A DNA stretch of 64,000 nt from Myxococcota bacterium (GTDB lineage Bacteria; Myxococcota_A; UBA9160; UBA4427): contig OZ252299.1 of NCBI GenBank assembly GCA_965250285.1, positions 3,168,001 through 3,232,000 on the forward strand. The letters are read 5' to 3'. The translations under genes were made by a program, and so were the position numbers. Numbering within the stretch: the first letter of the stretch is position 1; each line of letters begins with the position of its first letter. Positions 18,771 to 36,684 of this stretch are shown here, piece by piece. The notes beneath the pieces are model-generated. The model did not search any database and was not told where the DNA came from. It saw nothing but the letters and a program-made list of their open reading frames with translations.

Positions 18771-18877
18771 GCTGCGCCTCCGCTGCGCTTCGCTCGAAGT
18801 GAACGCTCGTCCGGTCGCAGAGGGTAGCGCCAGCCGCGGCTACCCGAGGCCAGCTGGTGCGAACGGGCCTGCGGAGC

Positions 18878-19093: not shown

Positions 19094-19216
19094 TGGAGCA
19101 CGAGACCAGATTCGAACTGGCATCCCCTTCGCACACCAGACATGCCGTTCCGGCATGTCCGGCGCGCTCATACGATCTGCTCCCTCATCGGTCGCAGATC
19201 GCCCTCAAGTTGGCAA
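19094..19216 (-). repeat. tRNA-Gly-linked unit C, truncated at anticodon-loop heptamer; att-like boundary
   Basis: 28 nt identical to tRNA 3' end; similarity stops after TTGGCAA (19210-19216). Confidence 0.92.
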
Positions 19217-19800: not shown

Positions 19801-22497
19801 ATGCATCAAGAACTCCTGAGAACGAAGCTCAATCCCCCTGGTACCGGCAGCCTCCATTTCCGGCGCGAGCGCCTGGTTCGCATCCTGGAAGCGGGTGCGA
19901 GCGATCCTTTCGTGCTCGTCTCGGCGCCAGCCGGCTTCGGAAAGACGACGCTGGTCAGCGACTGGCTCTCGTCATGTGACCGGCCGCATGCCTGGCTGTC
20001 GATCGACGAGCGCGACGGCGACCTCCGGCAATTCCTCAGATACATCGTGGCGGCAGTTCGGACGGCCATTCCCGATGCCCTGCCAACGATGGCGCTGACG
20101 GTGCGAGATTCGCCGCTCCCTCCCGTCGACACGCTGTGCACGACCCTCAGCAACGAGCTCGAAGACCTCGACACACCCATCACTCTGGTGATCGACGACT
20201 TTCATCGCCTCGGGTCGTCGCCCGTGCATGAACTGATGGCCGAGATCGTCACCCGGCCACCCCGGCCGCTCCGGTTGATCCTGATCTCGCGCTTCGACCC
20301 CCCGCTTCCGCTGGCGACATTGCGGGCCCATGGATGGAACACGGAGGTCAGAGCAGAGGATCTTCGCTTCACCCGCAGCGAGTCTGCGCATCTGTTGCGC
20401 GAGCTCGCAGGGGGGGACGTGGGCGATAATGCCCTGGGCAACCTGGAGCATCAGAACGACGGCTGGGCGGCCGGGCTCCAGATGATTGCGGTCTCCCTGC
20501 GCGGCCGCGACGACGCGGATGCCTACCTGCGGAACCTCCAGATCGGGCAGAAGTTCGCCCGAGAGTTTCTGGCGCGCGAAGTGCTCGACGTACAGTCCGA
20601 AGATCTGAGAAACTGGCTGCTCAGAGCCTCCATCGCCGAGCGCTTCTGCGCACCTCTCTGCGAGGCCGTTCAGGATCCGAACGAAAACCAAGCCTCGGGG
20701 ATGAGTGGCGAGGACTTCCTCGCAACGCTCGAGGAACGCGGCTTGTTCGTCATCCCCATGGATGCGACCGGGCGATGGTATCGATTTCATCACCTCTTCC
20801 GCGACCTCTTGCGCTCAGAGCTCGCTGCGCGCTGGAACCCCGAGTCGATCACCGAGCTGCACGAGCGTGCGAGTCGCTGGTTCGCCGAGCAGGGCCTCGT
20901 CGAAGAGGCGCTGGATCACGCGCTGATGCTGGGTGACCCGGCGCTGGCGGTAGAGCTGGTCGCCGAAAACCGACACGCTGCAATGAATCAAGAGGACTGG
21001 CACCGCCTGGGTGCATGGCTCGACCGGCTGCCGGCTGGCAGCGCCACGTCGGATCCGAGGATCATGCTCGCCCGTGGCTGGCATCTCTGCCATATCCCGC
21101 GATTCGAGGAAGCCCTCTCGCTGATCGAGGATGTACGCGCGCTGCCCGCCGAAACACGGGCGTGTCACCGCGGCGTCGAGGGCGAGATCGAAGCGATGGA
21201 TGGCCTGCTCGGCTACATCGGCCAGGGCGTCTTTGGTCGGGACCGCGAGAGAGTCATCCGTCACTGCGAGAAGGCGCTGCTGCAACTCCCAGCAGACTTC
21301 GGGTGCATCCGAGGCTATGCGACCTATTTCCTTTCCTTGTCGCACGCTCTAAGCGGCCAGGGCGAGACGGCTCGCACCATTCTCTGGCGGGCAATGGAAG
21401 AGGACAGTGCGACCGGTGCCGCCTGTCAAGCTCGCGTCCGGAGCGCCCTCGCCCACGTCCTCTTCCGGGCGGGCGACTTGAGGGGGACGCTGGTCGCAGC
21501 ACAACAGCAACTCGACGTGGGGAGTACGCATGACCTCCCTGAAACAGTGCAGATGGCGCGGTCCACGTTGGGATGGTCTCACTATCTGAGGGGTGAGATC
21601 GACCAAGCCGAGGAGCACTTCAAGGCAGGCTCAGCCGCCATCGGAGCCTCGACGCCGGCTCCTCATGCCGAGAGCCACATCGGTCTCGCGCTCAGCAAAC
21701 GGGCTCGGGGAGACGGCGTCGACGCACGCGAGTCCATCGCGTCGCTCACCGCCTCGGCCATCGCGCGCGGCGCGAGCGCCTGGATCGAACACGGGCGCCT
21801 GTATCAGGCCGAGATCGCTCTTCTCGACGGACGGACAGCGGAGGCTCAGGCGCTGCTGAAAGGGATCGAGAAGCCACGCGCCTTCGGCTTCTACTACGAC
21901 GCGGAGCTGACGATCGCGAAGGCCCGCCTGGCAGATGGCGGGGAGGCTGCTCTGAGCGAAGCGGTCTCGATGCTCGAAGCGATGCGACTGCGCCTGGAGG
22001 ACAGACACGACATCATGCGCCTCGGCCCCGTGCTGGCCGTCGAGGCGCTGGTTCATCGGGCCCTGGGTGAAGAGACCGCCGCGATCTCGTTCCTCGAGGC
22101 CTCACTCGCCGCAACCGAGATCGGAGAGGCCATCCAGCCCTACCTCGACCTGGGTGCGCCCATGGCTGCGCTGATGCGAGAGCTCCCTAGCCCGGCGTGC
22201 GACTCGGAACATGCTCGCCGAATCCTCGCGGCCTCGAGCGGCGAATCAGATGGGCAGCCTGCAACTACGGAAAGACGACATCGACCTGAAGAGACCGGAC
22301 TGATCGAGCCGCTCACCAACCGGGAGCTCGATGTTCTGGAGCTCCTGGCCGAGCGATATCGCGACAAGGAGATCGCCGAGAAGCTCGTCATCTCGCCCGG
22401 TACGGTCCGATCGCACCTGAAGCGCGTCTACGGCAAGCTCGGCGTGAGCGGGCGACGAGAGGCGGTGGCTCGGGCCCAAGGCCTCGGTCTCATCTAG
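19801..22497 (+). CDS. MalT-like (STAND ATPase-TPR-LuxR HTH) regulator, copy 1
   Basis: APAGFGKTT, LVIDDFH, GWAAGL, YRFHHLF, EPLTNRELDVL. Confidence 0.93.
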   Translation: MHQELLRTKLNPPGTGSLHFRRERLVRILEAGASDPFVLVSAPAGFGKTTLVSDWLSSCDRPHAWLSIDERDGDLRQFLRYIVAAVRTAIPDALPTMALTVRDSPLPPVDTLCTTLSNELEDLDTPITLVIDDFHRLGSSPVHELMAEIVTRPPRPLRLILISRFDPPLPLATLRAHGWNTEVRAEDLRFTRSESAHLLRELAGGDVGDNALGNLEHQNDGWAAGLQMIAVSLRGRDDADAYLRNLQIGQKFAREFLAREVLDVQSEDLRNWLLRASIAERFCAPLCEAVQDPNENQASGMSGEDFLATLEERGLFVIPMDATGRWYRFHHLFRDLLRSELAARWNPESITELHERASRWFAEQGLVEEALDHALMLGDPALAVELVAENRHAAMNQEDWHRLGAWLDRLPAGSATSDPRIMLARGWHLCHIPRFEEALSLIEDVRALPAETRACHRGVEGEIEAMDGLLGYIGQGVFGRDRERVIRHCEKALLQLPADFGCIRGYATYFLSLSHALSGQGETARTILWRAMEEDSATGAACQARVRSALAHVLFRAGDLRGTLVAAQQQLDVGSTHDLPETVQMARSTLGWSHYLRGEIDQAEEHFKAGSAAIGASTPAPHAESHIGLALSKRARGDGVDARESIASLTASAIARGASAWIEHGRLYQAEIALLDGRTAEAQALLKGIEKPRAFGFYYDAELTIAKARLADGGEAALSEAVSMLEAMRLRLEDRHDIMRLGPVLAVEALVHRALGEETAAISFLEASLAATEIGEAIQPYLDLGAPMAALMRELPSPACDSEHARRILAASSGESDGQPATTERRHRPEETGLIEPLTNRELDVLELLAERYRDKEIAEKLVISPGTVRSHLKRVYGKLGVSGRREAVARAQGLGLI

Positions 22498-22513: not shown

Positions 22514-23504
22514 TCAGCTCCCTCCGAGCAGCGGGTTCCCGATGAGCGAAGGGATGACCGGGATGATGTCAAACTTCATCATCGCCACCTTGCCGAACGA
22601 GTCCGGGCTGACCACGGAATACTCGAGCCCAACGTTGATCCGCACTGGGAACTCACCGAAGTTGACCGTCTTTGCGACGCTGATCCCGACCGGCACGGTC
22701 CACTGCTCTCCCTTCGGCTCATTCGCGTTGAACGTGATCGTCGGATCGAACCCGATCTGCCATCCATCCTTCAGGTTGATGTTGAAGTAGTAGAGCATGC
22801 TGAGCTGGCTCAGTTCGGACTTCTGAGTCGGATCGAAGTCGTTTCGATCCGCGACGCGAAAGTAGTACTGCGGCCAGATGAACGCCGTGAAGTGCTTCGG
22901 CGTTGTACCCGAACGTCACGGTTGGTCCGACGCCGACCTGCTGCGACCCGAGCGCGTCATTCGTCGAAGACGGGAAGGAGAAGGTCGGGCCCACTCCGAT
23001 GATCCACCGTCCCGCCGGCGGCGAGACGACGAGTGGCAGCACGATGTCGCCCAGGCCGGCTGCCGACGTGAACTCATCCTGCGCGCCTGTCGGCACGGGT
23101 GTGCTGAGCGTGATCGGAATGACCGGGCGCGTGATCAGCCGCCACTCCTTCTCGCCCTTGCCATGGAGCGGGATCGGCAGTACAGGCTCGAAGAGCAGGT
23201 TGCCGCCGTACTCTGGCCCATCCTCGGCCACGTTCCCGTTGTTGAACGTGAGCTCGAACTCCGTGAACAGCGCCCAGATGTCTGAAGTCGGGTCTGCGAG
23301 CTTGCGGGCAATGTCTCCGAGGCCGCCGTGCTCGGGGTGCTTGTACTCCTTCTTCTCCGGCTTCGCGCCTTCTTGCGCTGCGGCCGCCTCGTCTGTCGCT
23401 CCGTCGGTCTCGGCAGCTCGTGCGACGGTGGCCAGCGCGGGTAAGAACAATAGGACCATCATGAAGAATGTGATCTTGATCCGCGGCTGAGCAGCGAAGG
23501 TCAT
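22514..23504 (-). pseudogene. Outer-membrane beta-barrel/transporter-like protein with one extra base near 22898
   Basis: Signal peptide, EPVLPIPL, GLGDI, GVGPT; removing one base in GCC-G-AAG joins to KHFTAFIWPQYYF...WTVPVG; may be an assembly error. Confidence 0.7.
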
Positions 23505-23598
23505 GAGGTGATCTCCGTCAGTTGGCCCTGCCGCGTCGGGCAGTGCGGACCATTTTCGACTCACGATGTCGGAGGTCGAGGCGTCTTCAGGACGGCGA

Positions 23599-23997
23599 TC
23601 AGCCGCTGCCCTCGACGAACGCCTTGAGCCGCGTCAGAGCCGCGCCCCAATGGGTGTTGCAGTACCCCATGCTGGGGTCGCCATCCTTCCACGCGCCGTC
23701 GCTGAAGTTGACGAGCGTGCCGCCATCTACGTCGGACAGCTCGAACGTGATCTTCTTGCCGACGTCGCCAGGCCCCTCGACTCCTTCCTGGACGAGTCGC
23801 GTGTCCTCGACCATCTCGAGGGTTTTCCAGGCAAAGCTGAGATGGGGCTTGGCCTTCATCGACACGGTGGCGCCGACGGCAATTTCGCCCTCGACCCCGG
23901 CGTAGTGCCACTTCTCGAAGTCGGTCACGTTCGTGAGAGCTTCGTAGACCTTGTCTCTCGGCGCGGCGATCTTGATCGTGTGGTGAAGCGTCGTCAT
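23599..23997 (-). CDS. SRPBCC/START domain protein
   Basis: IKIAAPRDKVYEALT, CNTHWGAALTRLKAFVE. Confidence 0.88.
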   Translation of the reverse strand: MTTLHHTIKIAAPRDKVYEALTNVTDFEKWHYAGVEGEIAVGATVSMKAKPHLSFAWKTLEMVEDTRLVQEGVEGPGDVGKKITFELSDVDGGTLVNFSDGAWKDGDPSMGYCNTHWGAALTRLKAFVEGSG

Positions 23998-24008
23998 CGT
24001 GGATCTCC

Positions 24009-24251
24009 TCACTTCTTTCGCAGCGGGGGAATCGCCGGCATCATCGGAAAGTTGTCCAGGTCGTTCGGATCCAATTTGAACGTCGGGTCGTACTTGTCCC
24101 GGTCCGTCATGTAATCGGGCTCTGTGCTGCGGAAGGTGTAGTTGCAGGTCTTGCACATGTAGACGTCCCACACGCCCTTGACAGGCGACGAGAACACGAC
24201 ATCGAGCGTCTTGGAGCCGCAGCGGGGACAGATCGTGAAGGCATTGGCCAT
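24009..24251 (-). CDS. Hydroxyarylic acid decarboxylase subunit D (BsdD/VdcD family)
   Basis: ICPRC...SPVKGVWDVYMCKTCNYTFRSTEP, directly downstream of a C subunit. Confidence 0.9.
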   Translation of the reverse strand: MANAFTICPRCGSKTLDVVFSSPVKGVWDVYMCKTCNYTFRSTEPDYMTDRDKYDPTFKLDPNDLDNFPMMPAIPPLRKK

Positions 24252-24263
24252 GGGTCGAGTCTC

Positions 24264-25712
24264 CTACTTGCTTGCGTTCGCGAGGTTCTGAATCAAGGCT
24301 TGCACCTTCGGCAGCCACTCCTCGGCTTCGGGCGGATTGTTGATCTGCATCGCGTAATCGCCGTGATCGTCCGGCGGGGCAGGTGTCGCCGCGTCCAGGA
24401 TGATCTTGTCTGTGATGCCGACCGGATCGGACCCCGGGTCGAGTGCGAGGACCGAGTGGTTCGGCACGACCATGCAGTCGAACCTGGGGTTGAACTTCGT
24501 CGACAGTGCCCACATGACCTGCGGCAGGTTGAAGGGGTCGACATCGGCATCGACGATGATGACCACCTTCGCGTAGCCGGTGCCGTGCGGTGTCTGCAGC
24601 ACCGACATCCCGACTGTCTTGGCGAAGCCGCCAACTCTCATCTCGGTCGACACGATCACCACCAGGCCGTGGGTATAGAGCGCGTTCACGTCGACGACTT
24701 CGGGGAACGAGTCCTTGAGCTGCACGTAGAGCGCGGCACCCGTGTTGATGAACATGTAGTCGATCTCGGTCCAGGGCATTCCGATCGCGCAGTACTCGTA
24801 GATCGGATTGTTCCGGTGATAGACCTTCTTCACGTTGACCGAGCACATGAGTCGACAGCCCGAAAGATGACCCGTGAACTCGCCGTAGGGGCCGTCGGGC
24901 ATTCGGACGCGGGGCAGCACCTCGGCCTCGATCACGATCTCGCTGCCCCAAGGCACCTGCAGGCCGTTTTCCATCGTCACCACCGGGTACGGTGCGCCAT
25001 CGGCCATGGCGCTGCACATCGTGTACTCGTCCTGGTCGTACAGCAGCGGCATGCTGGCGATCAGCGGGACGATCGGCTCGTTCCCCATGGTGATATAGAT
25101 CGGTAGAGGCTCGTTTCGCTCTTCGGCGGCCTTGAAGTGCAGCGCGATGTCGTGATCCGGCACCATCTGCATGCTCAGATGGTTCGTCCCCTGGACCTGG
25201 ATCCTATACATCCCGACGTTCTGATCGTCGAAGCTGTCCATGCGGTCGGGGTGGCGAGAGACGACCGAGGACTTGTTGAGGAAGAAGCCGCCGTCCCCCG
25301 GGTTCAGACGGAAGAGCGGCAACAGCTCGAACAGATTGACGTCGTCGCCTTCGATCACGTTCTCTTGCCAGGGCGCGCTGTCCATCTCTTCGATGCTGCC
25401 TTTCTCGAAGTTCTGGTAGCGGCGGTTGAACTCGCGCGCGATGTCCTTGAGCGGAGTGTCCTTCGGCATGCCGAAGGCGAGCGCGATGTTCGGCCACGAC
25501 CCGTGCACGTTCGACACGAGCTTGGCGTCGCTCGTGTACCCCTTGATGTTGTCGAAGGCGATCGCGGGTGCCGTGTCACCGACCCCCTTGTTGTTTGCGC
25601 TCAGGATCGCGGAGATGTCGGGTTCGGGCAGAACCGGATCTGTCATGTGAATCATCTGCCCTTCCTTTTCCAGTAGCTCGAGGAATCCTCTGAAGTCCTT
25701 GTGCGCCATCAT
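24264..25712 (-). CDS. UbiD-family hydroxyarylic acid decarboxylase subunit C (BsdC/VdcC-like)
   Basis: NVHGSW, NVGMYR, DGPYGEFTGH, GMPWTEIDY, NALYTHG, DVDPFNLPQVMWA. Confidence 0.92.
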   Translation of the reverse strand: MMAHKDFRGFLELLEKEGQMIHMTDPVLPEPDISAILSANNKGVGDTAPAIAFDNIKGYTSDAKLVSNVHGSWPNIALAFGMPKDTPLKDIAREFNRRYQNFEKGSIEEMDSAPWQENVIEGDDVNLFELLPLFRLNPGDGGFFLNKSSVVSRHPDRMDSFDDQNVGMYRIQVQGTNHLSMQMVPDHDIALHFKAAEERNEPLPIYITMGNEPIVPLIASMPLLYDQDEYTMCSAMADGAPYPVVTMENGLQVPWGSEIVIEAEVLPRVRMPDGPYGEFTGHLSGCRLMCSVNVKKVYHRNNPIYEYCAIGMPWTEIDYMFINTGAALYVQLKDSFPEVVDVNALYTHGLVVIVSTEMRVGGFAKTVGMSVLQTPHGTGYAKVVIIVDADVDPFNLPQVMWALSTKFNPRFDCMVVPNHSVLALDPGSDPVGITDKIILDAATPAPPDDHGDYAMQINNPPEAEEWLPKVQALIQNLANASK

Positions 25713-25803
25713 CTCTACTCCCACGCAGTCACTTTGGATCGCTCTCGCTGCCGAAGCCGACGTTCGGCTTTTTCGAGTCGAGAGCCTTGTTCGTCGAGAA
25801 CGC

Positions 25804-25878
25804 CTATTGGTCGTCGAATCCCCACCGAGACCAGTTGTCGAGCACCTTTTGCTTGATCGGCTCGGGGATGTGGCTCGA
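25804..25878 (-). pseudogene. Remnant C-terminus of an additional Fdc1-like UbiD
   Basis: PEPIKQKVLDNWSRWGF versus PDPVRQKVLENWSRWGF at the end of 26789-28315 (13/17 identical). Confidence 0.8.
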
Positions 25879-25936
25879 GCGCGAGCCGCGCACGGTTCGG
25901 GATGGAGTTCGCTTCGAGGAGATCCTCTCGGCTCGA

Positions 25937-26347
25937 TCACCCCCCACCCTGCGCCTTCCATGCCGCCTCTTCGGGGCTGCCGGGGACGGGAAGGATCTTG
26001 CCCCCCTCGATGCAATGGCTTGCATCGACTTCGCCCATCACGATTTCGATCTCGCCGGAAGCACACCCGAGGGCGTCGGCGAACGCCTTGCGGATCCCGG
26101 TCTCGATCTTGGCCTTGTCCTCGTCGGTCCTTCCCGCGCGGATCGTGGCGTTCAGGTAGGCCAGCTTTCCTTCCGGCAAATCGGGGAACCCGACCTCGGG
26201 GTCGGCCTCCTCGGAGAAGAAGGCATTCACGAACTGGCGAGGGGCTCCCGTCACATCCACATGGGTCGTGAAGATCCCCTCGGCCATTCTCGAGCGCTGA
26301 TCCTCGGTGGTCGCGCCCGGTTTGACCGTCGTCAGATAGATCGGCAT
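25937..26347 (-). CDS. Tautomerase superfamily, cis-CaaD-like
   Basis: Pro1, His28, IRAGRT arginine pair, CIEGGKILPVPG. Confidence 0.85.
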   Translation of the reverse strand: MPIYLTTVKPGATTEDQRSRMAEGIFTTHVDVTGAPRQFVNAFFSEEADPEVGFPDLPEGKLAYLNATIRAGRTDEDKAKIETGIRKAFADALGCASGEIEIVMGEVDASHCIEGGKILPVPGSPEEAAWKAQGGG

Positions 26348-26392
26348 GAGTCTCCCCTCTCGGTCCGGATCGGGTCCGGACATGTCGGCGCT

Positions 26393-26704
26393 CTAGGTCG
26401 TCACTGTGACTTCGTTCGAGTCGACCCCGGTCTTCTCGACCCACAGGTCACTGAGCGACTTCAGGAGCTTCACACGGTCGTCGTAGGCGATGTCGTTCGG
26501 GACGTCGCAGCGAATCACGGTCGTCGTGCTGGGGTTGCCGCCGGTCCAGGCGAAGCCCTGGTCGACGGACCGCCAGAAGACGGGCGTCGAGGCTGCGTCC
26601 TGACCGAACTGGTCCACCGCGATCCTCTGGATGCCTTCCACCAGCTCGTGTTTTCGCGCGTCGGCCGCCTGGCCCCCTTGGACCAGCACTCGATACTTGG
26701 TCAT
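26393..26704 (-). CDS. Tautomerase-fold protein lacking Pro1
   Basis: Two beta-alpha-beta-like units (RKHELVEGI; RVKLLKSLSDLWVEKTGV..EVTV); begins MTKY; AAGGAG RBS. Confidence 0.6.
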   Translation of the reverse strand: MTKYRVLVQGGQAADARKHELVEGIQRIAVDQFGQDAASTPVFWRSVDQGFAWTGGNPSTTTVIRCDVPNDIAYDDRVKLLKSLSDLWVEKTGVDSNEVTVTT

Positions 26705-26733
26705 CTGTGTTCTCCTTGGAGTCGGTCCGCCTT

Positions 26734-26767
26734 CGTGCCGAGCCACTCGTTCGAGTGACTCGGCACG
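26734..26767 (-). other. Intra-operon stem-loop after ubiD
   Basis: CGTGCCGAGTCACTCG-AA-CGAGTGGCTCGGCACG, one G-U pair, no U tract. Confidence 0.6.
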
Positions 26768-26788
26768 CGCTACAGCGGTCGTCGAGCT

Positions 26789-28315
26789 CTACTTGGCGAA
26801 TCCCCATCGTGACCAGTTCTCGAGCACCTTCTGCCGGACGGGGTCCGGGTAGTTCGTCTCGAAGGTCAGGATGTTCTCCAGCTGCTGCCCGGTCTTGCCT
26901 TCGATGGGCAGGCAGCTGTACGCCGTCAGGCCACTGCCGTGGATGAAGTCGCTCTGGCTGTGATAGGCCTCGAGCCCCGTCCCGACGACGTTCTCGATCT
27001 CGGGGAAGTAGAACGTGCTCCGCGTCGGGTGATTCCGGGTCGCGAAGGCCCAGCACACCTCGAGGGCGCTATCGGGATCGACGTCCTCGTTCACCACGAT
27101 GATCTTCGTGGTGATGTTGCCCACGTGCTGCGACCAGAGCGTCGTGCCGATCTTCCGGACGAACTCCTCCATGCCCAACCCGGTCTTCTGATGCCAGTCG
27201 TTGTCGACGCGAATGACCAGCCACGCCAGGGCAGACTCCATCGTCAGCATGCTGTCGATCACGGGGAGCCCCTCCTTCTGCAAGGCGACGGTGACGTCGC
27301 CCGACATGAAGAAGCCCATGCCGACGGTGCACGAGTCGATCGGCTTTCCCGGCACCGAGACGGGGAAGAGCGGGTTGTTGCGGTACGTGACGTGGGTGAC
27401 GGTCACCCGTGCGCGGTTCGCCGTATCGAAGGGCAGGTAGCCCTGATACTCGCCGAACGGCCCTTCCACCTCCATCGCATCCTTCGAGACGAAGCCTTCG
27501 AGGACGATCTCGGAATCGGCCGGCACCAACAGGTCGTTCGTGTCGCACTTGACCATGCGGATGCCTTCGCCGAGCAGCCGGCTGGCATAGTCGTACTCGT
27601 TCGTGAAGTCGGGCGCCTTCGCCGACGACTGCGTGAGAACGACCGGCGGCACACCGAACGCCATCGCCCACGGCGTGTCCTGCCCTTCCTCGGTCCACTG
27701 ATCGTGCACCATGCCGTTGTGCTGCGAAGAGAGCCAGAGACCCGTCATCGTGGTCTCGTTCACGATCATCGCGCGATTGATCGACCAGCTCGTCCAGCTC
27801 TCGTCTGGAGTCCGAACGATGTTGACGCCCGCGGTTCCGATGTAGCGAGCAGCGTCGCCGTCATGACAGAGCGGCGCGGGGATCTTGTAGATGTCGATCT
27901 CGTCGCCGGTCCACGTGTTCTCCTTGCACGGCGCATCCGACGCATCGACGATGACCGGCTCGTGCACCTCCGTGCCCTCTCGAGCCTCGAGGTACGCCTT
28001 CTGGATGTCCATCAGGCCGGTTTCGGGCGGAAGGCCGAGCATGGCCGCGAGGCGGCACCACTCCCGCCCTGGCGTGCTCGACTTCGTGTACCCGATGTCG
28101 CAGGCGCGGAAGCCTTCGCCCTCTGGCGTGCCCTTGATGTTGTTGAAGATCGGCGTCGGAGCCAGCGTCTCGTAGGAGTGACGGCAGACTGCACCCATCT
28201 CGAGATGCGTGTCGATCTCGTCATCGATCTCGACCGCCTCCCCCATCTTCTTGAGGTTCTCGATGTATTCGCGATAGGTGCGCGGGATCTTTGCTCGGTC
28301 GATCGAAACTGACAT
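26789..28315 (-). CDS. UbiD-family decarboxylase, Fdc1 (ferulic/cinnamic acid)-like
   Basis: WTSWSINR, EGPFGEYQGY, WAFATRNHP, C-terminal KVLENWSRWG. Confidence 0.9.
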   Translation of the reverse strand: MSVSIDRAKIPRTYREYIENLKKMGEAVEIDDEIDTHLEMGAVCRHSYETLAPTPIFNNIKGTPEGEGFRACDIGYTKSSTPGREWCRLAAMLGLPPETGLMDIQKAYLEAREGTEVHEPVIVDASDAPCKENTWTGDEIDIYKIPAPLCHDGDAARYIGTAGVNIVRTPDESWTSWSINRAMIVNETTMTGLWLSSQHNGMVHDQWTEEGQDTPWAMAFGVPPVVLTQSSAKAPDFTNEYDYASRLLGEGIRMVKCDTNDLLVPADSEIVLEGFVSKDAMEVEGPFGEYQGYLPFDTANRARVTVTHVTYRNNPLFPVSVPGKPIDSCTVGMGFFMSGDVTVALQKEGLPVIDSMLTMESALAWLVIRVDNDWHQKTGLGMEEFVRKIGTTLWSQHVGNITTKIIVVNEDVDPDSALEVCWAFATRNHPTRSTFYFPEIENVVGTGLEAYHSQSDFIHGSGLTAYSCLPIEGKTGQQLENILTFETNYPDPVRQKVLENWSRWGFAK

Positions 28316-28445
28316 TCTGGAAGGTCTCCATGGTTCGAGTTGCGGTGAAGGGGCAGCGGTACCGCCGGGCCGTCCGGTCGGTCACGCCAGGTAGTCGTTC
28401 TCCACGACGGCCGGGCGTATGCCGTGTCGAGGAGCTCACGCGTCT

Positions 28446-29111
28446 TTACGCTTCTTCCCGCGATGCGAGGGACCGAGTGGACTCCTCGAAGTCGTTCGTT
28501 TCGGCCTGCCAGTCGCGGCCGTTCTCTCCTCGCTGCTCGCGATGCAACCGACCGCCTTGCCAGCGGTTGACGACACCCGGGTCGATGTCGAACAGATCGA
28601 GCACACGACCCACGCTGTGCAGCACCTGGTCGTCGATCGTCTTCGGCTCGTTGTAGAAGGCCGGCATCGGCGGCGAAATGATCGCGCCCATCTGCGCCGC
28701 TTCGTACAGCAGCTTGCAGTGGCCAACGTGGAGCGGGGTCTCGCGCACCATCAGCACGAGCTTTCGCCGCTCCTTGAGCACGACGTCGGCTGCGCGCACG
28801 AGCAGGCTGTCAGCGAAGGAGTTCACGATGCCCGAGAGCGTCTTGATGGAACACGGCGCCACGATCATTCCGTCCGTGTGGAACGAGCCGCTCGAGATCG
28901 CGGCGGCCTGATCCCGAAAGTTGTGGACGACGTCGGCCTGGGCCTCGACTGCCTTCGCCGAGTAGGGTGTCTCGATCTCGATGTTCTGCTTCGCGTGCGG
29001 ACTCATGACGAGGTGGGTTTCGACGGAGGGGTCCGTCGCGAGTACCTCGAGCATGCGCGCGCCATAGACGACGCCCGATGAGCCTGACATACCGATGATG
29101 ATTCTCTTCAC
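28446..29111 (-). CDS. ubiX: Flavin prenyltransferase
   Basis: GMSGSSG, ISSGS, APCSIKT, RAADVVLKERRKL, RETP, PPMPAFY. Confidence 0.95.
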   Translation of the reverse strand: MKRIIIGMSGSSGVVYGARMLEVLATDPSVETHLVMSPHAKQNIEIETPYSAKAVEAQADVVHNFRDQAAAISSGSFHTDGMIVAPCSIKTLSGIVNSFADSLLVRAADVVLKERRKLVLMVRETPLHVGHCKLLYEAAQMGAIISPPMPAFYNEPKTIDDQVLHSVGRVLDLFDIDPGVVNRWQGGRLHREQRGENGRDWQAETNDFEESTRSLASREEA

Positions 29112-29911
29112 ACGTCGCTCCTCTCTCTGTGGCCCGCCGGCGCCTGCGCGCTGCTCAAGGCGACGCTGATCAAATCGCCGTCGACGATGCCGAGTTCATC
29201 CCGCACGCCGGCCTCAGCGATGACTTCGATCTGGTCGGCGGGGTAGTCTTCTACGTCGGGCAACACGATGGCCGCGCGCCCGATCGAGTGGATCTCGACG
29301 GGGAAGCATCGGGCGCCGCAGCTCTCGGCCTCGTCGCTCGGCGGGTCGATGGGGATGCCTGGCGTTGCTCGCAGGCCGCTCCAGATCGCGCGTGATTGCG
29401 CATCCACCAAACGTGCGTTCAGGGTGCCCGGGTGTGGATCGATCCCGAGCTTGCCGACGAGCTCGGCGCGAACCCAGTCGAGTTGCGTGAAGCCACTGGC
29501 GACGCCCGCGCCGGTCACGACGCGGCCACAGATCGTTCGATGTGCGGCCTCGGACTGGTCTGCCCACTCGAGAAACGTGACCGGGATGCCGTCTGGGTCA
29601 CGAAGCTGGAAGACGCGAGCGCCCCACGACGTCATCTCGGGCGGTGGCGTATCGAGCCCCAGGCGAAGGTGCGCCCCCACGGCGTCTTCGACTTCGATCA
29701 CGAGATGAAAGCGTTCGCCCGGCGAGTGGATCGCGAGAGGAGAACGCTCGCGGCCATTGTCGAGCACCTCGAGGGTCATCCCGCCGAGGTCGAAACGTTG
29801 GCCTCGGCCATTCGCGCGATCCCACTCCGCGATGAGCGGAAGACGAAGCGTGTCGCCGTAGAACTCGACGACTGCGTCGAAGTCGTCTGTCGCAAGGGCG
29901 ACGTAGCTCAT
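29108..29911 (-). CDS. VOC/glyoxalase domain fused to CTP-dependent (archaeal-type) riboflavin kinase domain
   Basis: N-term WGARVFQLRDPDGIPV; C-term GRVVTGAG, HPGTLN, IEVIA..VRDELGIVDGD. Confidence 0.8.
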   Translation of the reverse strand: MSYVALATDDFDAVVEFYGDTLRLPLIAEWDRANGRGQRFDLGGMTLEVLDNGRERSPLAIHSPGERFHLVIEVEDAVGAHLRLGLDTPPPEMTSWGARVFQLRDPDGIPVTFLEWADQSEAAHRTICGRVVTGAGVASGFTQLDWVRAELVGKLGIDPHPGTLNARLVDAQSRAIWSGLRATPGIPIDPPSDEAESCGARCFPVEIHSIGRAAIVLPDVEDYPADQIEVIAEAGVRDELGIVDGDLISVALSSAQAPAGHRERSDV

Positions 29912-31029
29912 GCCGACATCCTTCGTTCGGCGCCCGCATCGAGCGTGTCGAGCGGTGAAGCGCACATCGGCAGGACCTCTTCGATCAGCAGCCGCTCGCT
30001 TCGCTCCCACTCGGCGCGCTCGGCCGTCGCGTCGTAAGCGACGCTCAGAAGGGTTCCGAAGCCCCCGGTCTTCGACTGCAGCTCCGAGATCGACTCCGCC
30101 ACGGTCTCGGGCGAGCCAACGAGCCAGATGTGGTCGGCGAGATACTCGAGATCGATCGCTTCATCGGGGATCGAGGGCTCGGTCTTCAGCAGTGGCCCGA
30201 GGCCCAGGCCGAGGTAGACCGGCAGGAGAAACTCGCGCCAGCAACGTCCCATCATCCCTTCGATGGCGAGCTCGCGCGCCTCCGCGTCCGTGGGCGCAAC
30301 GTAGACGTCGCGCACGACCCGCCAATCGTTACGGTCGGCGACGCGACCGACCGCAGCAGCCCCCTCTGCCACGGTGTCCCAGTGCTTCGCGGTCTCTTCC
30401 GGATCCGGGCCAATGCTGAGACTGACGGGGATGTACCCGCGCTCCCCGGCAAGTCGGTGGTTCGCCGAGCCTTGCGTCATGCCCGCGATCGCGATCGGAG
30501 GATGGGGCTGCTGCAGCGGGGTGACGTGGTACCCGAGCCCCGCGATATCGCTCTGGACAGCGCCCATCGACCAGAACTCGCCCTCGGTGTCGCCATCGCC
30601 GTGAAGCCAGAGGCGCGTCATGAGGTCGAGCGCCTCGAAGGTCATGCGCCGATTGCGTCCGAACTCATCTCCGAGCGCGAAGAGCTCACGGTCGGAGGGC
30701 AAGGCGCTGATCCCGACCCCGAGCTGGTAGCGGCCCTCGGCCATGTGATCGAGATACGCGACGCGATGTGCGAGCTCGACGGGGTGGTGATACGGGAGCA
30801 GGTGACCGAGCGGGCCGAGCCGAATGCGTTCGGTGCGCTGAAGCGCCTGCGCGATCAGGAGATCGGGCGCCGGGCAGGGCTCCCAGGGCGCGGTGAAATG
30901 CTCGCCGATCCACGCCTCGGTGTACCCGAGGCGATCGAGGCGCTCGAGCTCTTCGAGGTCGGCGAGCTGGCCCTCCCGCATGCTTCGTTCGGGGGGATGA
31001 GACGGCATCAGCAGCGCACCAAGCTTCAT
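29908..31029 (-). CDS. Luciferase-like (LLM) flavin-dependent monooxygenase
   Basis: AWIGEH, WEPCPAPD, HLLPYHHP, PLQQPHPPI, LVGSPETV. Confidence 0.9.
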   Translation of the reverse strand: MKLGALLMPSHPPERSMREGQLADLEELERLDRLGYTEAWIGEHFTAPWEPCPAPDLLIAQALQRTERIRLGPLGHLLPYHHPVELAHRVAYLDHMAEGRYQLGVGISALPSDRELFALGDEFGRNRRMTFEALDLMTRLWLHGDGDTEGEFWSMGAVQSDIAGLGYHVTPLQQPHPPIAIAGMTQGSANHRLAGERGYIPVSLSIGPDPEETAKHWDTVAEGAAAVGRVADRNDWRVVRDVYVAPTDAEARELAIEGMMGRCWREFLLPVYLGLGLGPLLKTEPSIPDEAIDLEYLADHIWLVGSPETVAESISELQSKTGGFGTLLSVAYDATAERAEWERSERLLIEEVLPMCASPLDTLDAGAERRMSA

Positions 31030-31204
31030 TTCGTGCTCCTCGTCGTCACGCCGCTCATGAGATCTCTTCACCCGGATGAATCTCGACGGCGTCCAGATCC
31101 GGGCAACGACCTGCGATCGATGCGACGCATCCAACCCCTCATTGCCTTGGTGGCGAAGTCGCTCGAAAGGAGAGCCGAAGGGTCTTGCGTCTCGATCGGC
31201 GGAC

Positions 31205-31260
31205 ACACTAAGTGCCGCCTACCTGAGTGACCTGCCCGGAAACTGGGGAATTTTGAGGGA
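31205..31260 (-). promoter_or_regulatory. Putative activator box plus -10 for the LLM-ubiX-ubiD operon
   Basis: TCCCTCAAAATTCCCCA upstream of TAGTGT; same layout at 33175-33230 and 40062-40118. Confidence 0.6.
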
Positions 31261-31284
31261 ATGGGTGCGCGCGCAGGACGACGG

Positions 31285-31527
31285 CTATTCGATGACGATG
31301 ACTTCGACGATCGGCAGGTGCAGGTCGTGCAGCGCATTGAGCACCCCGATGAGCTGCGACTGGTCGGCCACTTCGCCCTCGAGGGTGGACACGGGTGGGT
31401 GACCGTCAGACGTGACCCTCGAGATCTTCAAGCCGGCGACGAGGGGCCGCATCGCGGGATCGAACCAGCCATCCACGACGATCCGATAGTGACCCGGGTT
31501 CCACATGCGTTGGCTCGGTCGCTGCAT
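31285..31527 (-). CDS. Small conserved ACT-like protein, copy 1
   Basis: YRIVVDGW...STLEGEVADQSQLIGVLNALHDLHLPIVEV; paralog of 33254-33496. Confidence 0.8.
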   Translation of the reverse strand: MQRPSQRMWNPGHYRIVVDGWFDPAMRPLVAGLKISRVTSDGHPPVSTLEGEVADQSQLIGVLNALHDLHLPIVEVIVIE

Positions 31528-31830
31528 GCCTCGCCCCCGCGCTCGTTGACGCAACACACGTCGAGGTCAGGCGTCGCACCCTGAAAACGGGACGCGCACT
31601 CGTCCCGGCAGTGCACCGCGCACCTGGAGCCGCATCGCCCTACTACGACGACCATTCGAATCTAGTCGCGCACCTGAACGCCGGCCTCTCCTGTAACCGG
31701 ACAATTACTGGGTACCCGGCTCCTGGCCATGCACCGAAGACCTGACAAAACTGATGGGTTCGCGAAATCGATCTCGAGTAGTTCGACATCGGCCGGTGAC
31801 ACGGACTTTTGCTGGAGTACTGTGGTTCTG

Positions 31831-32436
31831 ATGGAGCCCGCCCCCTTCGGTCCTGCAGCAAACGACGAAGCCAACCGACTCAGTCGGCCGGGCGAAGAAT
31901 GGGTCGTTCTGGTCAACGAGCGCGACGAGCAGATCGGCGTGATGGAGAAGCTCGATGCGCATCGCGATGGAGGGAGGCTCCATCGCGCGTTCTCGGTGTT
32001 CGTCTTCGATGAGCGGGGCCGAATGCTCCTGCAACGTCGCGCATCCGTGAAGTATCACTTCCCGCTGCTGTGGACGAACGCGTGCTGCGGGCACCCTCGT
32101 CCGGGCGAAGACGTGAAGGTCGCGGCGCGGCGACGAGTCGGTGAGGAGCTCGGCGTCGACGTCGAGGTCGCCCCTCGCTTCACGTTCGAGTATCAGGCGA
32201 CTGACCCTGCGACGCGTCTATCCGAACACGAGATCGACCACGTCTTCGTGGGTCGGCTGCGCGGGTCGCCAGACCCCAACCCGGACGAGGTCGATGCCTT
32301 GGCCTGGTGGCCGATCGGCGATCTGTTGACCGACGTCGATGTTCGACCGCACGCGTATACGCCATGGTTCCGACGGGCACTCGAGGAGATGCGCACGAGA
32401 GACATCATCGACCCGAGCGCGTTGATCGAGCTCTAG
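31831..32436 (+). CDS. idi: Isopentenyl-diphosphate delta-isomerase type 1
   Basis: LHRAFSVF, WTNACCGHP, EHEIDHVF, PNPDEV, YTPWF; start uncertain. Confidence 0.93.
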   Translation: MEPAPFGPAANDEANRLSRPGEEWVVLVNERDEQIGVMEKLDAHRDGGRLHRAFSVFVFDERGRMLLQRRASVKYHFPLLWTNACCGHPRPGEDVKVAARRRVGEELGVDVEVAPRFTFEYQATDPATRLSEHEIDHVFVGRLRGSPDPNPDEVDALAWWPIGDLLTDVDVRPHAYTPWFRRALEEMRTRDIIDPSALIEL

Positions 32437-33092
32437 GTCTCTGCGTTCGACGCATCGTTGCGCTTCATGGCTTCGTCGTAGCTCGGGCGCGCCGCCACGC
32501 GCCCGCGATAGCTCTGCAGCGCGTCGGAGACCTTCATGTCGTAGCCCAGGGCCCAGTCGAGGCACGTCACGAGCAGGATGTCGGGGACTCCGAACTCGTC
32601 TCCCATGACGAACGATCGCCCGTCGGAGAGCCAGCGCTCTGCCTCGGTGAACCCCCGCTGGACATAGTTCTTTGCCGCATCGCACGCCACGGGCGCCTCA
32701 CCGTAGGTCTCTGACAGCCCAAGCGGCGGCTGGGCGTGCATCCGCACCGTGTACAGCCGCGCGTCGATCTCGGTCATGATGTAGAAGACGTGGTCGTAGA
32801 AGTCGGCGAGCTCGGCCGAACCGTGCTCGGGCATGCGCAGCCCCTGATCTCCGCCGTGCCGATTGGCGAGGTAGCAGCAAATGCCGGCGCTCTCGCCGAT
32901 CTTGACGCGATCGTCCTCGTAGAAGGGGACCTTGTGGCGCGGACTCACGGCCAGCAGGCCGGAGTTTTCGATGCCACCGCCTCGTGGCAGGATCTTCTTG
33001 TGCTCGTAGTCGAGTCCGAGCTCGATGAGTGCCCACTGCGGACGGACCGTCCGCGACGTGCCAATGCCCCAGACCGTTCTCGGCGAGCTCAT
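32433..33092 (-). CDS. Glutathione S-transferase family protein
   Basis: GTSRT, KVP, ESAGICCYL, FGVPDI. Confidence 0.88.
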   Translation of the reverse strand: MSSPRTVWGIGTSRTVRPQWALIELGLDYEHKKILPRGGGIENSGLLAVSPRHKVPFYEDDRVKIGESAGICCYLANRHGGDQGLRMPEHGSAELADFYDHVFYIMTEIDARLYTVRMHAQPPLGLSETYGEAPVACDAAKNYVQRGFTEAERWLSDGRSFVMGDEFGVPDILLVTCLDWALGYDMKVSDALQSYRGRVAARPSYDEAMKRNDASNAET

Positions 33093-33253: not shown

Positions 33254-33496
33254 CTACCCGGTCATCGTGACCTCGACGATCGGAAGGTTGAGGTCGTGCA
33301 GAGCGGTCAGCACGCCGATCAGCTGAGCCTGGTCCTCGATCTCGCCCGAGAGGATCGAGGTTGGTGCGTCATCGTCCCTCGTTGCGCTCTGGATCTGCAA
33401 GCCAGCTACACGCGCACTCATCTCGGGGTCGACCCATCCGTCGACCACGGTCCGGAAGTGACCGGGCGTCCACATTCGTCGTCGCCCGCGCTCCAA
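33254..33496 (-). CDS. Small conserved ACT-like protein, copy 2
   Basis: FRTVVDGW...LSGEIEDQAQLIGVLTALHDLNLPIVEV; TTG start after GAGGAG. Confidence 0.8.
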   Translation of the reverse strand: MERGRRRMWTPGHFRTVVDGWVDPEMSARVAGLQIQSATRDDDAPTSILSGEIEDQAQLIGVLTALHDLNLPIVEVTMTG

Positions 33497-33975: not shown

Positions 33976-36684
33976 TTGAATCCGGATGTTCTGAAATCCA
34001 AGCTCAACCGTCCGTATGTCGGTCGCGAGCACACGGTCCGGGAGCGGCTCTGGCATCAGCTCGACGGCGCCGCGACCGCCCCGTTCGTGCTCGTGTCGGC
34101 CCCCGCCGGGTTCGGCAAGACGACCCTGGTCAGCAGCTGGCTCGACACGCGCGGAGAACGCTTCGCCTGGCTCTCGGTCGATGCGGGTGATGACGACCTC
34201 CGGACTTTCCTCCGCTATCTGCTTGCCGCGGTGCGCACCGTCGCGCCCGATACAGCCCGGCGAACCGGCGTGTTGTTGCAGGAGCCTGCCCTCCCCCCGG
34301 TGGCCGAGCTGAGCGCAGCGCTCAGCAACGACCTCGACGAGCTGGAGATGCCATTCCACCTGGCGCTCGACGACTACCATCACATCAAGGCGAGCGAGGT
34401 GCACGAGCTCGTCTCGTCGCTCGTCATGCGCCCCCCTCGAACACTGCGGCTGATACTCCTCGCGCGCCATGACCCTCCCCTGCCGCTGGAGACGCTCCGA
34501 GCTCAGAACAGAATCGCGGAAGTCCGTGCCCAACAGCTTCGGTTCACGCGAGAAGAAGCTGCGGACATGGTCGCCACACTGTCGGGGACAGTCCCCGGAG
34601 ATCGAGCCCTCGACAACCTCGAGGTGCAGAACGACGGCTGGGCCGTTGGGCTGCAACTGATCTCGCTGGCGGCTCGGGAGCGAAAGGATGTCGATGCGTA
34701 CCTGCGTGATCTGCAGGTGGGGCCACGTACGACCCGGGACTATCTGGCTCGTGAGGTGCTCGACGCTCAGCCGCCGCAGTTGCAGGCGTGGCTCCTCAGG
34801 ATCTCGATTCTGGACCGCTTCTGCGCCCCGTTGTGCGAGACCCTCAAGCCCACAGCCGACGGAGAGCCAGACGATGGATCGGACTTCCTCGCGCTCTCGG
34901 GAGCGGACTTCGTCGCTGAGTTGGAGCATCGCGGCCTCTTCGTGATCGCACTCGACGACCAGAACGAGTGGTTTCGGTTTCACCACGTGTTCCGCGATCT
35001 ACTCAGCAGCGAGCTGAACGGACGAGAATCTCCGGGCGGTGTTCTAGACCTCCACAGCAGCGCCAGCGCGTGGTTCGCCGAGCACGACTTCGTCGAAGAG
35101 GCATTGGATCACGCGTGTACGGCAGGCGACATGGATTCGGCGACTTCGATCGTCGCCGAACGTCGTCACGTAGCGACGGGCCTCGAAGACTGGCACCGCC
35201 TGAACGCATGGCTCGAGCGACTCCCGCCCGCGGACCTCGAAGCCGATCCGAGACTCGTTCTGGCCCGAGCCTGGTTCGCGTCGTTTTGCGCTCAGTTCGA
35301 TCTCATGATCGAGTACATGGTCAAGGCAAGCGGCTTCGAGCTCGACAGCCGCCCGGACGGTCCGAGCCTCGAAGGAGAGATTCGGGCGCTGGAGGCCTCG
35401 ATGTACTTCATCGGCCTCGATGCGCCAGGCGTCATTCGCAGCGCAGAGCGGGCGCTCGAGCTACTGCCCCTCGACTTCGAATGCGTGCGGGGCTACGCCA
35501 TATTCCTGCTCTCCTGGGGCTACAGTGCGAGCGGACGCGGTCGCGAGGCGCGTGAAGCCCTCTGGCGTGAGATGGATGCGGGACGGAATGCGGGGCCCGC
35601 GTTCCGCGGGCGCGTTCGCGGCGGCCTGGCCCACGTGTTGCTGCGAGAGGGAGATCTCGCCGGCAGCCTGACCGCCGCCCGCCAGCTGTTCGAGATTGGC
35701 GAGGAGCATGACCTCCTCGAGACCGTCATCATGGCGCGGTCTTTCATGGCGTGGGCACACTACCTCCGCGACGAGCTCGAAGAAGCGGAGGCGCACTTCA
35801 AAGCGATCCTCCTGACCAGACGCTCGGCCATTCATATCGGCCACGTGGAGGGACACATCGGGCTGGCGCTATGCATGCAAGCTCGAGGGCACTACGAGAA
35901 GGCTCGACAGTGGGCCCAGGAGATGACCGCCCTGGGCATCGCGCGGGATCAGCCCATGTGGATCGAAGAAGGACGCATCTACGAAGCAGAGATCGCGCTG
36001 CGTCAGGGCGGGGTCGACGAAGCGAAGACCCTGGTCGAGCACCACCAGGCACTTCAGCCGCGTTGGGGATTCATGTACGAGCCCCAGCTCACTCGCCCGC
36101 GACTGTGGCTCGCCGAGGGCACACCTGCGTCTCTCGAACGGGCGAAGGCGGAGCTCGCGCCGATCCGCGAACGCTTCGAGGCATCGAACGATCGGATGCG
36201 CCTGGCCGAAGTGCTGGCCGTGGAGGCCCTGGTCGAGGATGCGCTCGGCCATGCGGAGATCGCGCGCGATCGCCTGTCGATGGCGCTTCCGCTCACGCGG
36301 CAGGGGGGAGCCATACGGCCCTACCTCGACCGCGGGCCTTCGATGGCATCGTTGCTGCGAAAGGTCGAGCTGCCACCCGAAGAGTCGGAGCAGGTCGACC
36401 GGATTCTCCAGGCTCTGGGAAGCACGACGGCGACCGAACGATCGACTTTGCAAACGGAGCGCCCGAGCGGCGAAGAGCTCGTGGAGCCTTTGACCAACCG
36501 CGAGCTCGATGTTCTCGAGCTACTCGACGAGCGCTTCCGAGACAAGGAGATCGCGGAGAGGCTGTCGATCGCACCGGGGACCGTGCGATCCCACCTCAAG
36601 TCGGCCTACCGCAAGCTGGACGTGAACGGTCGGCGGAGCGCCGTCGAGCGAGCGCGCGAGCTGGGGATCTTGAAGAAGAACTGA
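33976..36684 (+). CDS. MalT-like (STAND ATPase-TPR-LuxR HTH) regulator, copy 2
   Basis: APAGFGKTT, ALDDYH, FRFHHVF, EPLTNRELDVL; collinear with 19801-22497. Confidence 0.93.
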   Translation: MNPDVLKSKLNRPYVGREHTVRERLWHQLDGAATAPFVLVSAPAGFGKTTLVSSWLDTRGERFAWLSVDAGDDDLRTFLRYLLAAVRTVAPDTARRTGVLLQEPALPPVAELSAALSNDLDELEMPFHLALDDYHHIKASEVHELVSSLVMRPPRTLRLILLARHDPPLPLETLRAQNRIAEVRAQQLRFTREEAADMVATLSGTVPGDRALDNLEVQNDGWAVGLQLISLAARERKDVDAYLRDLQVGPRTTRDYLAREVLDAQPPQLQAWLLRISILDRFCAPLCETLKPTADGEPDDGSDFLALSGADFVAELEHRGLFVIALDDQNEWFRFHHVFRDLLSSELNGRESPGGVLDLHSSASAWFAEHDFVEEALDHACTAGDMDSATSIVAERRHVATGLEDWHRLNAWLERLPPADLEADPRLVLARAWFASFCAQFDLMIEYMVKASGFELDSRPDGPSLEGEIRALEASMYFIGLDAPGVIRSAERALELLPLDFECVRGYAIFLLSWGYSASGRGREAREALWREMDAGRNAGPAFRGRVRGGLAHVLLREGDLAGSLTAARQLFEIGEEHDLLETVIMARSFMAWAHYLRDELEEAEAHFKAILLTRRSAIHIGHVEGHIGLALCMQARGHYEKARQWAQEMTALGIARDQPMWIEEGRIYEAEIALRQGGVDEAKTLVEHHQALQPRWGFMYEPQLTRPRLWLAEGTPASLERAKAELAPIRERFEASNDRMRLAEVLAVEALVEDALGHAEIARDRLSMALPLTRQGGAIRPYLDRGPSMASLLRKVELPPEESEQVDRILQALGSTTATERSTLQTERPSGEELVEPLTNRELDVLELLDERFRDKEIAERLSIAPGTVRSHLKSAYRKLDVNGRRSAVERARELGILKKN

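Follow-up and report, generated by a model that had tools for sequence, protein, structure and literature searches.

Several described UbiD decarboxylases are encoded with the flavin prenyltransferase UbiX and one or more small accessory genes in a single unit, as in phdABC of Mycolicibacterium fortuitum and vdcBCD-yclD of Bacillus and Priestia (PMC13040415). The PhdC/YclD protein of these units is a maturase of prenylated flavin mononucleotide (prFMN), and its accessory role is independent of the substrate of the decarboxylase (PMC13040415). In the LpdB/LpdC/LpdD system of Lactobacillus plantarum the small gene is tied to ubiX and not to one ubiD, and its product LpdD is a chaperone of reduced prFMN (prFMNH2); the same source mentions many UbiD-linked genes of unknown function (PMC10865409). 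A unit of this general kind was found in a 64-kb stretch of a Myxococcota genome (contig OZ252299.1; "the window" below, whose numbering is used throughout). It contains a luciferase-like flavoprotein (LLM), a fusion of a vicinal oxygen chelate (VOC) domain with a CTP-dependent riboflavin kinase, UbiX and two UbiD decarboxylases, with the isomerase gene idi close by (Table 1). For the LLM and the VOC domain a substrate-independent role like that of PhdC/YclD is proposed here. Nevertheless, PhdC is an HpaC-like split barrel, while the companions in this cassette are a luciferase-like TIM barrel and a VOC (glyoxalase) fold, to which the kinase and idi have been added; neither the LLM nor the VOC domain shows the HpaC-like split barrel with its ExW motif. 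The candidate carrier is the VOC domain, which differs in family from LpdD, the protein holding that place in the Lpd system. No match to PF21758, which we take to be the LpdD-type family, was found in the host genome (G000).

Related loci were collected with profile scans for the VOC–kinase protein, in which the best 80 of 268 and the best 80 of 515 matches gave 160 loci, 126 of them with a VOC gene. Cassette composition was counted in the 51 VOC-anchored loci with enough flanking sequence, for neighbours within 5 kb. An LLM was present in 47/51, ubiX in 45/51 and ubiD in 46/51, and relatives of the SRPBCC protein of the window (26–37% identical) in 30/51. The hosts include Acidobacteria, Alpha- and Gammaproteobacteria, Verrucomicrobia, Gemmatimonadota, Mycobacterium and a cyanobacterium, and the cassette is present in the cultured strains Microbulbifer agarilyticus, Terracidiphilus gabretensis and Silvibacterium bohemicum. 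LLM, VOC and UbiX form a conserved core, which was overlooked in a first-pass annotation of the window that had centred on decarboxylation and cofactor supply.

The decarboxylase beside this core is exchanged. Identity clustering of 59 near-full-length partner UbiDs placed 30 in an unassigned group without a close solved relative and 27 in the Fdc1 branch, with two singletons. Between the two main groups the mean identity was 28% for UbiD, as against 71% for LLM, 61% for VOC and 57% for UbiX (294 pairs, 35 loci); in five hand-picked pairs it was 29–31% for UbiD, 75–80% for LLM and 78–85% for UbiX. The UbiD pockets differ sharply between the groups, for example Asp/Arg versus hydrophobic residues at Fdc1 positions 185/187, while 163 of the 359 LLM alignment columns are conserved at 95% or more. 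The 30-protein group (L030–L039, L027, L045 and others) consists of proteins of about 530 amino acids that carry the Asp/Arg pair and accompany LLM, VOC, UbiX and SRPBCC in Acidobacteriaceae and Acetobacteraceae.

The cassette LLMs are monophyletic (57/57, support 1.0) and are set apart by 27 diagnostic residues from 44 outgroup LLMs. None of these outgroups, at 41–58% identity, has ubiX, ubiD or a cassette-type VOC gene within 1.5 kb, and a plasmid search gave no LLM of the cassette clade (best 44–45%). A sister clade at 56–58% (L181–L188) occurs in the phylum of the window itself, often behind an open reading frame (ORF) that looks carboxylesterase-like in translation; its members are possibly ordinary Baeyer–Villiger enzymes.

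Since LLM and VOC remain beside UbiX even as the UbiD and its substrate pocket vary, and the cofactor is what all UbiDs have in common, the simplest expectation is that the two proteins act on the cofactor. That they handle prFMN for whichever UbiD adjoins the cassette is in our judgement evenly balanced between right and wrong. A more specific form of this reading, drawn by analogy, is put forward tentatively: the LLM barrel may mature prFMN or rescue its radical, with a VOC dimer free of metal as the carrier, so that together with UbiX they would make a plug-in factory for any UbiD class, to which the flavin kinase, ribAB or idi would have been added on several occasions. In such a scheme FMN would come from the kinase and dimethylallyl diphosphate (DMAPP) from isopentenyl diphosphate by the action of IDI, and a host reductase would provide the FMNH2 needed by UbiX for the synthesis of prFMNH2; all of these reactions are established chemistry. 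The VOC dimer would then carry the flavin, and the LLM, an O2-handling and FMNH2-binding barrel, would mature prFMNH2 or restore the active iminium from the prFMN radical, in parallel with PhdC/YclD or LpdD elsewhere but with unrelated folds. The assignment of these two roles draws on precedents: maturation of Fdc1 has been proposed to proceed via a C4a-peroxo adduct (PMC5818171), luciferases form an FMN-4a-hydroperoxide, the LuxB-derived LuxF binds a C6-alkylated FMN (PMC6279958), and there is a crystal structure of a VOC protein, TnmS3, with riboflavin (see below).

The nearest solved relative of the LLM is 3,6-diketocamphane monooxygenase, at 34% identity and with a TM-score of 0.88 for the model. 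The VOC model (pLDDT 89.5) matches many VOC proteins, the top ones including the drug-binding TnmS1/S3 and the mitomycin-binding MRD; TnmS3 has been crystallised with riboflavin (5UMX). Metal-dependent VOC enzymes of the GloA/FosA type have the four ligands His/Glu/His/Glu. The corresponding positions here are Tyr3, Glu48, His69 and Thr112, so that two of the four usual ligands are replaced (by Tyr3 and Thr112), and Trp30, Trp96, Arg36, Glu48 and Glu73 are invariant. An Atlas search with the VOC domain returned generic VOC clusters only.

The genes for cofactor supply were considered in turn. UbiX scores well above its family cut-offs (TIGR00421, 216.6 vs 108.9; NF004685, 254.9 vs 188). Its E47, E124, Y153 and W184, which correspond by position to E49, E140, Y169 and W200 of the P. 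aeruginosa enzyme, are invariant in 39/39 cassette proteins. At the β-phosphate position, where all 39 have His or Gln, His165 of the window UbiX aligns with H164 of O157 UbiX and Q203 of A. niger. His or Gln, as opposed to Phe, at this position has been tied to DMAPP-using UbiX, yet is not the sole determinant (PMC6541611), and His165 is compatible with use of DMAPP. The kinase domain scores 89 vs 25 bits with PF01982 and has the G-x-G, GTLN and Glu motifs; it stays below the whole-protein equivalog profiles since its architecture differs. The VOC–kinase fusion is a real family, as about 50 of the 120 matches listed (148 in all) hold both domains. The kinase lies directly behind VOC in 18 loci; ubiX is present in 16 of these and an Fdc1-like ubiD in 14, and no UbiD from any other group was found in them. 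One of the 34 loci with a kinase but no VOC is probably a truncated fusion; of the remaining 33, ubiX or ubiD lies within 10 kb in 8. The gene ribAB follows ubiX in L118 and L119.

Two further arrangements of bacterial CTP-type kinases were seen. In L068, L069, L076, L078, L083, L086, L090, L093, L094 and L096 they are fused to a HAD hydrolase or a PNPOx-like split barrel, and several of these adjoin ubiD or ubiX; the split-barrel domain fused to the L086 kinase gave no PhdC match in the PDB. In L066, L075, L079, L081, L082, L091, L092 and L095, which belong to Proteobacteria and mostly Alphaproteobacteria, a stand-alone kinase sits right before an enolase of the mandelate racemase/MLE type, often with FAA-hydrolase genes and with no evident link to prFMN.

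The idi gene of the window scores 198 vs 127 bits with NF002995, and its C/E/W motifs are visible in the alignment. An idi gene was found in 3/126 VOC-anchored loci (L057, L171 and L172, the last two 89% alike). These are 38–50% identical to that of the window, which is itself 55–62% identical to the idi genes of its relatives, including 62% to one in a carotenoid-type cluster. As judged from these identities, the idi additions stem from different lineages. The window and the Microbulbifer locus L057 make the point most directly: their UbiDs are 80% and their glutathione S-transferases (GSTs) 68% alike, but the idi genes beside the GSTs differ (38%). In both the host and this Microbulbifer (G333) the only type-1 idi of the genome is that of the cluster. 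Even at one idi per genome, about 0.2–0.3 cases would be expected outside the window, against two independent cases observed (rough Poisson P 0.02–0.035). No IDI-2, Nudix or other source of dimethylallyl phosphate was found in a Pfam scan of 133 ORFs from 34 of the 126 loci.

Kinase and idi accordingly recur with similar clusters, a test that the first-pass annotation had set for its claim that the island supplies both cofactor precursors. This recurrence, the different lineages of idi and the DMAPP-compatible histidine of UbiX agree with the claim. Strict self-sufficiency is not supported, because the host has ribF and ispH outside the island and its two genes of the flavin-reductase family (PF01613) also lie off it. 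The only ubiX, the only ubiD genes and the only type-1 idi of the genome are all on the island. An IDI-2 or a mevalonate route elsewhere in the host was ruled out, as neither HMG-CoA reductase nor IDI-2 was found above cut-off. An idi gene above cut-off occurs in 3/60 relatives, there beside ORFs of carotenoid or methyltransferase type (read from translations). Since it is so rare in this lineage it appears dispensable, and with ribF and ispH present in the host the kinase and idi are likely add-on boosters rather than essentials.

Several observations weigh against a cofactor role for the pair. As far as its family motifs go, the LLM looks like an ordinary two-component monooxygenase; its sister clade is often found beside the carboxylesterase-like genes mentioned above, and flavin-binding proteins do not stand out among the fold matches of VOC. 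Changes of UbiD class on the LLM tree are few (2 in a coarse and 6 in a fine classification, 42 rows), and the loci are not independent, many coming from related Acidobacteriaceae and Acetobacteraceae bins. Every LLM at 65% identity or above was reached via the VOC search, and group-wide LLM searches of 301, 301, 301 and 251 genomes, with 151 of the phylum of the window, gave outgroups only and no new member of the clade. Of 113 loci with room upstream, 7 lack the LLM, and ubiX is retained in four of these 7 (L026, L131, L136 and L179). In L029 an intact LLM and VOC stand more than 10 kb from any ubiX or ubiD, both of which occur elsewhere in that genome, and VOC stands alone in L028, L059 and L110. 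As for the supply genes, neither ubiX nor ubiD lies within 10 kb in 25 of the 33 other kinase loci, and 123 of the 126 loci, many of which are short, lack idi. Moreover, Fdc1 self-matures and PhdC gave it no improvement (PMC13040415), so that partners of the Fdc1 branch may need no maturase. The main alternative, which we hold to be rather unlikely, is a shared-product pathway, in which related acids would all yield the same type of product on decarboxylation by the various UbiDs, and the LLM would oxidise that product as a conventional FMNH2/O2 monooxygenase; VOC, SRPBCC, GST and tautomerases would bind or dispose of reactive intermediates and the kinase would feed FMN to LLM and UbiX. The type II Baeyer–Villiger monooxygenase nearest to the LLM would suit such a pathway, as would the AraC regulator beside many marine loci, expected of an inducible catabolic or detoxification unit, and the recurrence of GST (57–68% identical, adjoining the cassette in L040 and L057) and of the Pro-1 tautomerase (6/126 loci). 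The position of a UbiD in the family tree has also been stated to have no fundamental link to its substrate (PMC7976604). The draft genome G1187 is in line with a cofactor role: no ubiX or ubiD was found in it, its LLM deviates at 40/159 conserved positions including H44, E50 and H76 (nine other cassette loci deviate at 0–7/163), and among 79 VOC sequences its own shows the strongest erosion. A pathway with a shared product explains this decay just as well. What such a pathway leaves unaccounted for is a nearly fixed LLM next to strongly different UbiD pockets, the fusion of VOC to a flavin kinase, and the finding of no recurring downstream catabolic enzymes or transporters in 133 neighbouring ORFs of 34 loci. 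In the G1187 locus (L243:180-5668) genes for an SDR, for aconitase X with its swivel subunit and for an OprB porin come after the eroded LLM and VOC–kinase genes.

The drug-binding proteins among the top fold matches of VOC raise another alternative, which we regard as improbable, namely that some antimicrobial, planar and aromatic, is captured by VOC and SRPBCC and inactivated by UbiD, LLM and GST, with the cofactor genes as passengers. The two replaced metal ligands, the minimal gene set and the patchy spread would agree with sequestration of a toxin; the exchange of decarboxylase class beside a constant LLM and VOC, the fusion of the kinase and the additions of ribAB and idi would go unexplained. 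Least credible of all, and in our view very improbable, is that idi and the kinase are unrelated cargo gathered at a tRNA hotspot and the cluster a chance mosaic. The island is indeed a mosaic: it includes a ubiD stump, and the last gene of the run is broken (see below); idi is rare among the VOC-anchored loci and transcribed away from the cassette, and the host already has ribF and ispH. Against mere hitch-hiking, the kinase is fused in frame and lies beside ubiX in nearly all fusion loci, idi recurs more often than expected, and the window and L057 share closely similar GST and UbiD genes yet have different idi genes beside the GST.

Both UbiDs of the window have three UbiD domains and the R-X(n)-E/D-X4-E motif. 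The first scores 332–343 bits with fungal Fdc1 and 332 with Pseudomonas HudA, a heteroaromatic (pyrrole-2-carboxylate) decarboxylase. The first-pass annotation had assigned it acrylate side chains as substrate, a claim that is not supported: its score is equal for HudA, and the Fdc1 pocket is rebuilt (I187L, M283Y, T323C, I327M, Y394N, T395I and F437T). HudA N318/W322, which map by offset to Fdc1 T323/I327, are Cys/Met in the window enzyme, and the Tyr equivalent to HudA Y279 (at Fdc1 M283) alone is shared. Cinnamate was rejected as an assignable substrate. Residue 176, at the position of Fdc1 N168, which we take to be a Mn ligand, is Ser, as it is in 4/25 other Fdc1-branch cassette UbiDs. A plasmid search gave no close relative of this enzyme (best 36%). 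The second UbiD has 7AE4 as its best PDB match (E 1e-145) and is 48–53% identical to named VdcC proteins on plasmids; its 624.6 bits with NF041204 fall below the cut-off of 650, although this is still its best family. It is followed by a VdcD protein with four Cys (NF041205, 103 vs 30 bits), and VdcD is a required activator subunit (PMC8379154). From these matches, hydroxybenzoate or vanillate is a fair prediction for the VdcCD-type enzyme.

The proposal that the cluster serves two decarboxylase classes stands insofar as two UbiDs of separate branches are present. The acrylate class is unsupported and the pairing does not recur, VdcC or VdcD being found in 0/126 related loci, so that a conserved two-decarboxylase unit is ruled out. 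The stump of a second Fdc1-like ubiD, which would be the scar of a gene swap or deletion, sits inside the gap ahead of the VdcC-like gene. From this stump and the absence of VdcC and VdcD in related loci, the two-class pairing looks like a local mosaic.

Table 1. Features of the locus and of the island around it. Gene identities are from Pfam and NCBIfam profile cut-offs; positions are in the numbering of the 64-kb window.
Feature	Position	Strand	Evidence or remark
LLM (luciferase-like flavoprotein)	29908-31029	-	Bac_luciferase E 1e-40
VOC–riboflavin kinase fusion	29108-29911	-	Glyoxalase E 3e-9; CTP-dep_RFKase E 3e-25
VOC-fold domain, N-terminal part of fusion; candidate flavin/prFMN carrier	29558-29911	-	
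CTP-dependent (archaeal-type) riboflavin kinase domain	29108-29557	-	G-x-G loop, GTLN and Glu229 kept
ubiX, flavin prenyltransferase	28446-29111	-	TIGR00421, NF004685
ubiD, Fdc1/HudA branch	26789-28315	-	Catalytic R/E/E kept, substrate pocket altered
Tautomerase-like protein 1, small, without Pro-1	26393-26704	-	Weak match E 0.006, under Pfam cut-off
Tautomerase-superfamily protein 2, with Pro-1	25937-26347	-	Pfam E 2.5e-7
Stump of second Fdc1-like ubiD, 3' end	25804-25875	-	34/38 nt identical to terminus of intact gene
VdcC/BsdC-like ubiD (hydroxybenzoate/vanillate decarboxylase type)	24264-25712	-	NF041204, below cut-off
VdcD zinc-ribbon activator subunit, two CxxC, proline-rich tail	24009-24251	-	NF041205, above cut-off
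SRPBCC/AHSA1 protein	23599-23997	-	Pfam
Exported protein, porin-like by pattern, frameshifted near 22890-22900	22514-23504	-	No Pfam match
idi, type 1	~31831-32436	+	NF002995 and TIGR02150, above cut-off
GST, overlaps end of idi	32433-33092	-	Pfam
MalT/LAL-type LuxR regulator, left	19801-22497	+	Pfam, NCBIfam
MalT/LAL-type LuxR regulator, right	33976-36684	+	50% identical to left one
Left boundary repeat with copies of tRNA-Gly 3' end	18877-19215		
Right boundary, tandem 216-nt repeats and tRNA-Gly(GCC) at 41892-41967 (-)	41416-41967		

The gene content and order read earlier from the sequence were borne out by the profile scans. Neighbouring genes of the LLM, VOC–kinase and ubiX set overlap by 4 nt each, and the gaps that follow ubiX in the direction of transcription are 130, 84, 45, 224, 12, 11 and 94 nt; the stump lies in that of 224 nt, and idi is head-to-head with the LLM gene across 801 nt. 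The description of these genes as one run holds for strand and order; with gaps of up to 224 nt it does not extend to a single transcript, and a scan for promoters and terminators gave no excess over shuffled sequence. The gene called a porin is present, with a broken reading frame, unnamed homologues and no match to a Pfam family. An assembly slip was rejected as the cause of the frameshift, because contigs from two runs, one of which may be the source sample, carry the same break without an indel.

Two small paralogous ORFs without Pfam matches (31285-31557 and 33254-33496, minus strand; 60% identical) flank idi and GST, the second directly ahead of the right-hand LAL regulator. A second tautomerase-like pair in the same order was found in the host genome (G000:C1:4570742-4571424; 42% and 36% identical, with no ubiD), and such a pair also follows an Fdc1-like ubiD in L159 and L168.

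The genes lie where they had been placed, though the unit is larger: it is an acquired island of 22.6 kb (~19.1-41.7 kb) at tRNA-Gly. Copies of the 3' end of this tRNA occur with a 216-nt unit at 41416-41930 and again at the left boundary. The region combines the marks of a tRNA-targeted island, namely direct repeats of a tRNA 3' end, atypical G+C content and absence from relatives. The G+C content is 63.5% in the 22.5-32.5 kb stretch and 68.6% genome-wide, with values this low in 2% of 10-kb windows; the ubiD query was matched in 0/60 relatives, and the core genes beyond tRNA-Gly are kept in 5/5. No integrase was found among the island ORFs scanned with Pfam, some small ORFs being outside that scan. 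At both borders each of the tandem 216-nt units opens with a tRNA-Gly 3'-end copy, a further piece lies at 40432-40471, and short pieces of the border repeat recur at two other sites in the genome.

The island is real, and it holds a UbiD/UbiX-plus-accessory operon with a candidate new accessory pair; its interest lies in the LLM and VOC. No description of LLM, VOC, CTP-dependent kinase or idi with UbiX/UbiD was found in the literature searched, most subscription papers and supplements being outside the search. If the cofactor reading is true, two new folds would enter prFMN biology. Poor cofactor loading or maturation is the main obstacle to the use of UbiD enzymes in CO2 fixation and the conversion of lignin aromatics. 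The helpers described in the literature cited are LpdD and PhdC/YclD, to which the pair would add two further candidates that follow UbiX whatever the UbiD class. Should the shared-product pathway be true instead, the pair would point to an undescribed oxygenase and to two unassigned UbiD groups with a common product.

Compared with the remaining known systems, the downstream half of the cluster resembles VdcBCD/BsdBCD (ShVdcCD, 7AE4), in which the VdcC-like gene is likewise followed directly by a CxxC/CxxC VdcD with a proline-rich tail (PMC8379154). The window differs in that it has no adjacent VdcB, the UbiX of the island being shared, in that SRPBCC takes the place of YclD, and in the lower score of its C subunit. 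The upstream UbiD belongs to the same branch as fungal Fdc1 (with Pad1) and HudA (PA0254) (PMC7976604). It keeps the equivalents of R173/E277/E282, Q190, H191 and E233, while N168S joins the pocket substitutions listed above. The kinase has the G-x-G loop, GTLN and conserved Glu in common with the archaeal CTP-dependent riboflavin kinases (MJ0056 and the RbkR domain of T. acidophilum), but it is bacterial, stands behind a VOC domain and is found in a genome that also has ribF. The LLM shares its fold with 3,6-diketocamphane 1,6-monooxygenase (4UWM), a type II Baeyer–Villiger enzyme, but forms a separate clade with no context of ketone catabolism. By analogy with the phd and vdc units, LLM and VOC would work like PhdC, without being PhdC.

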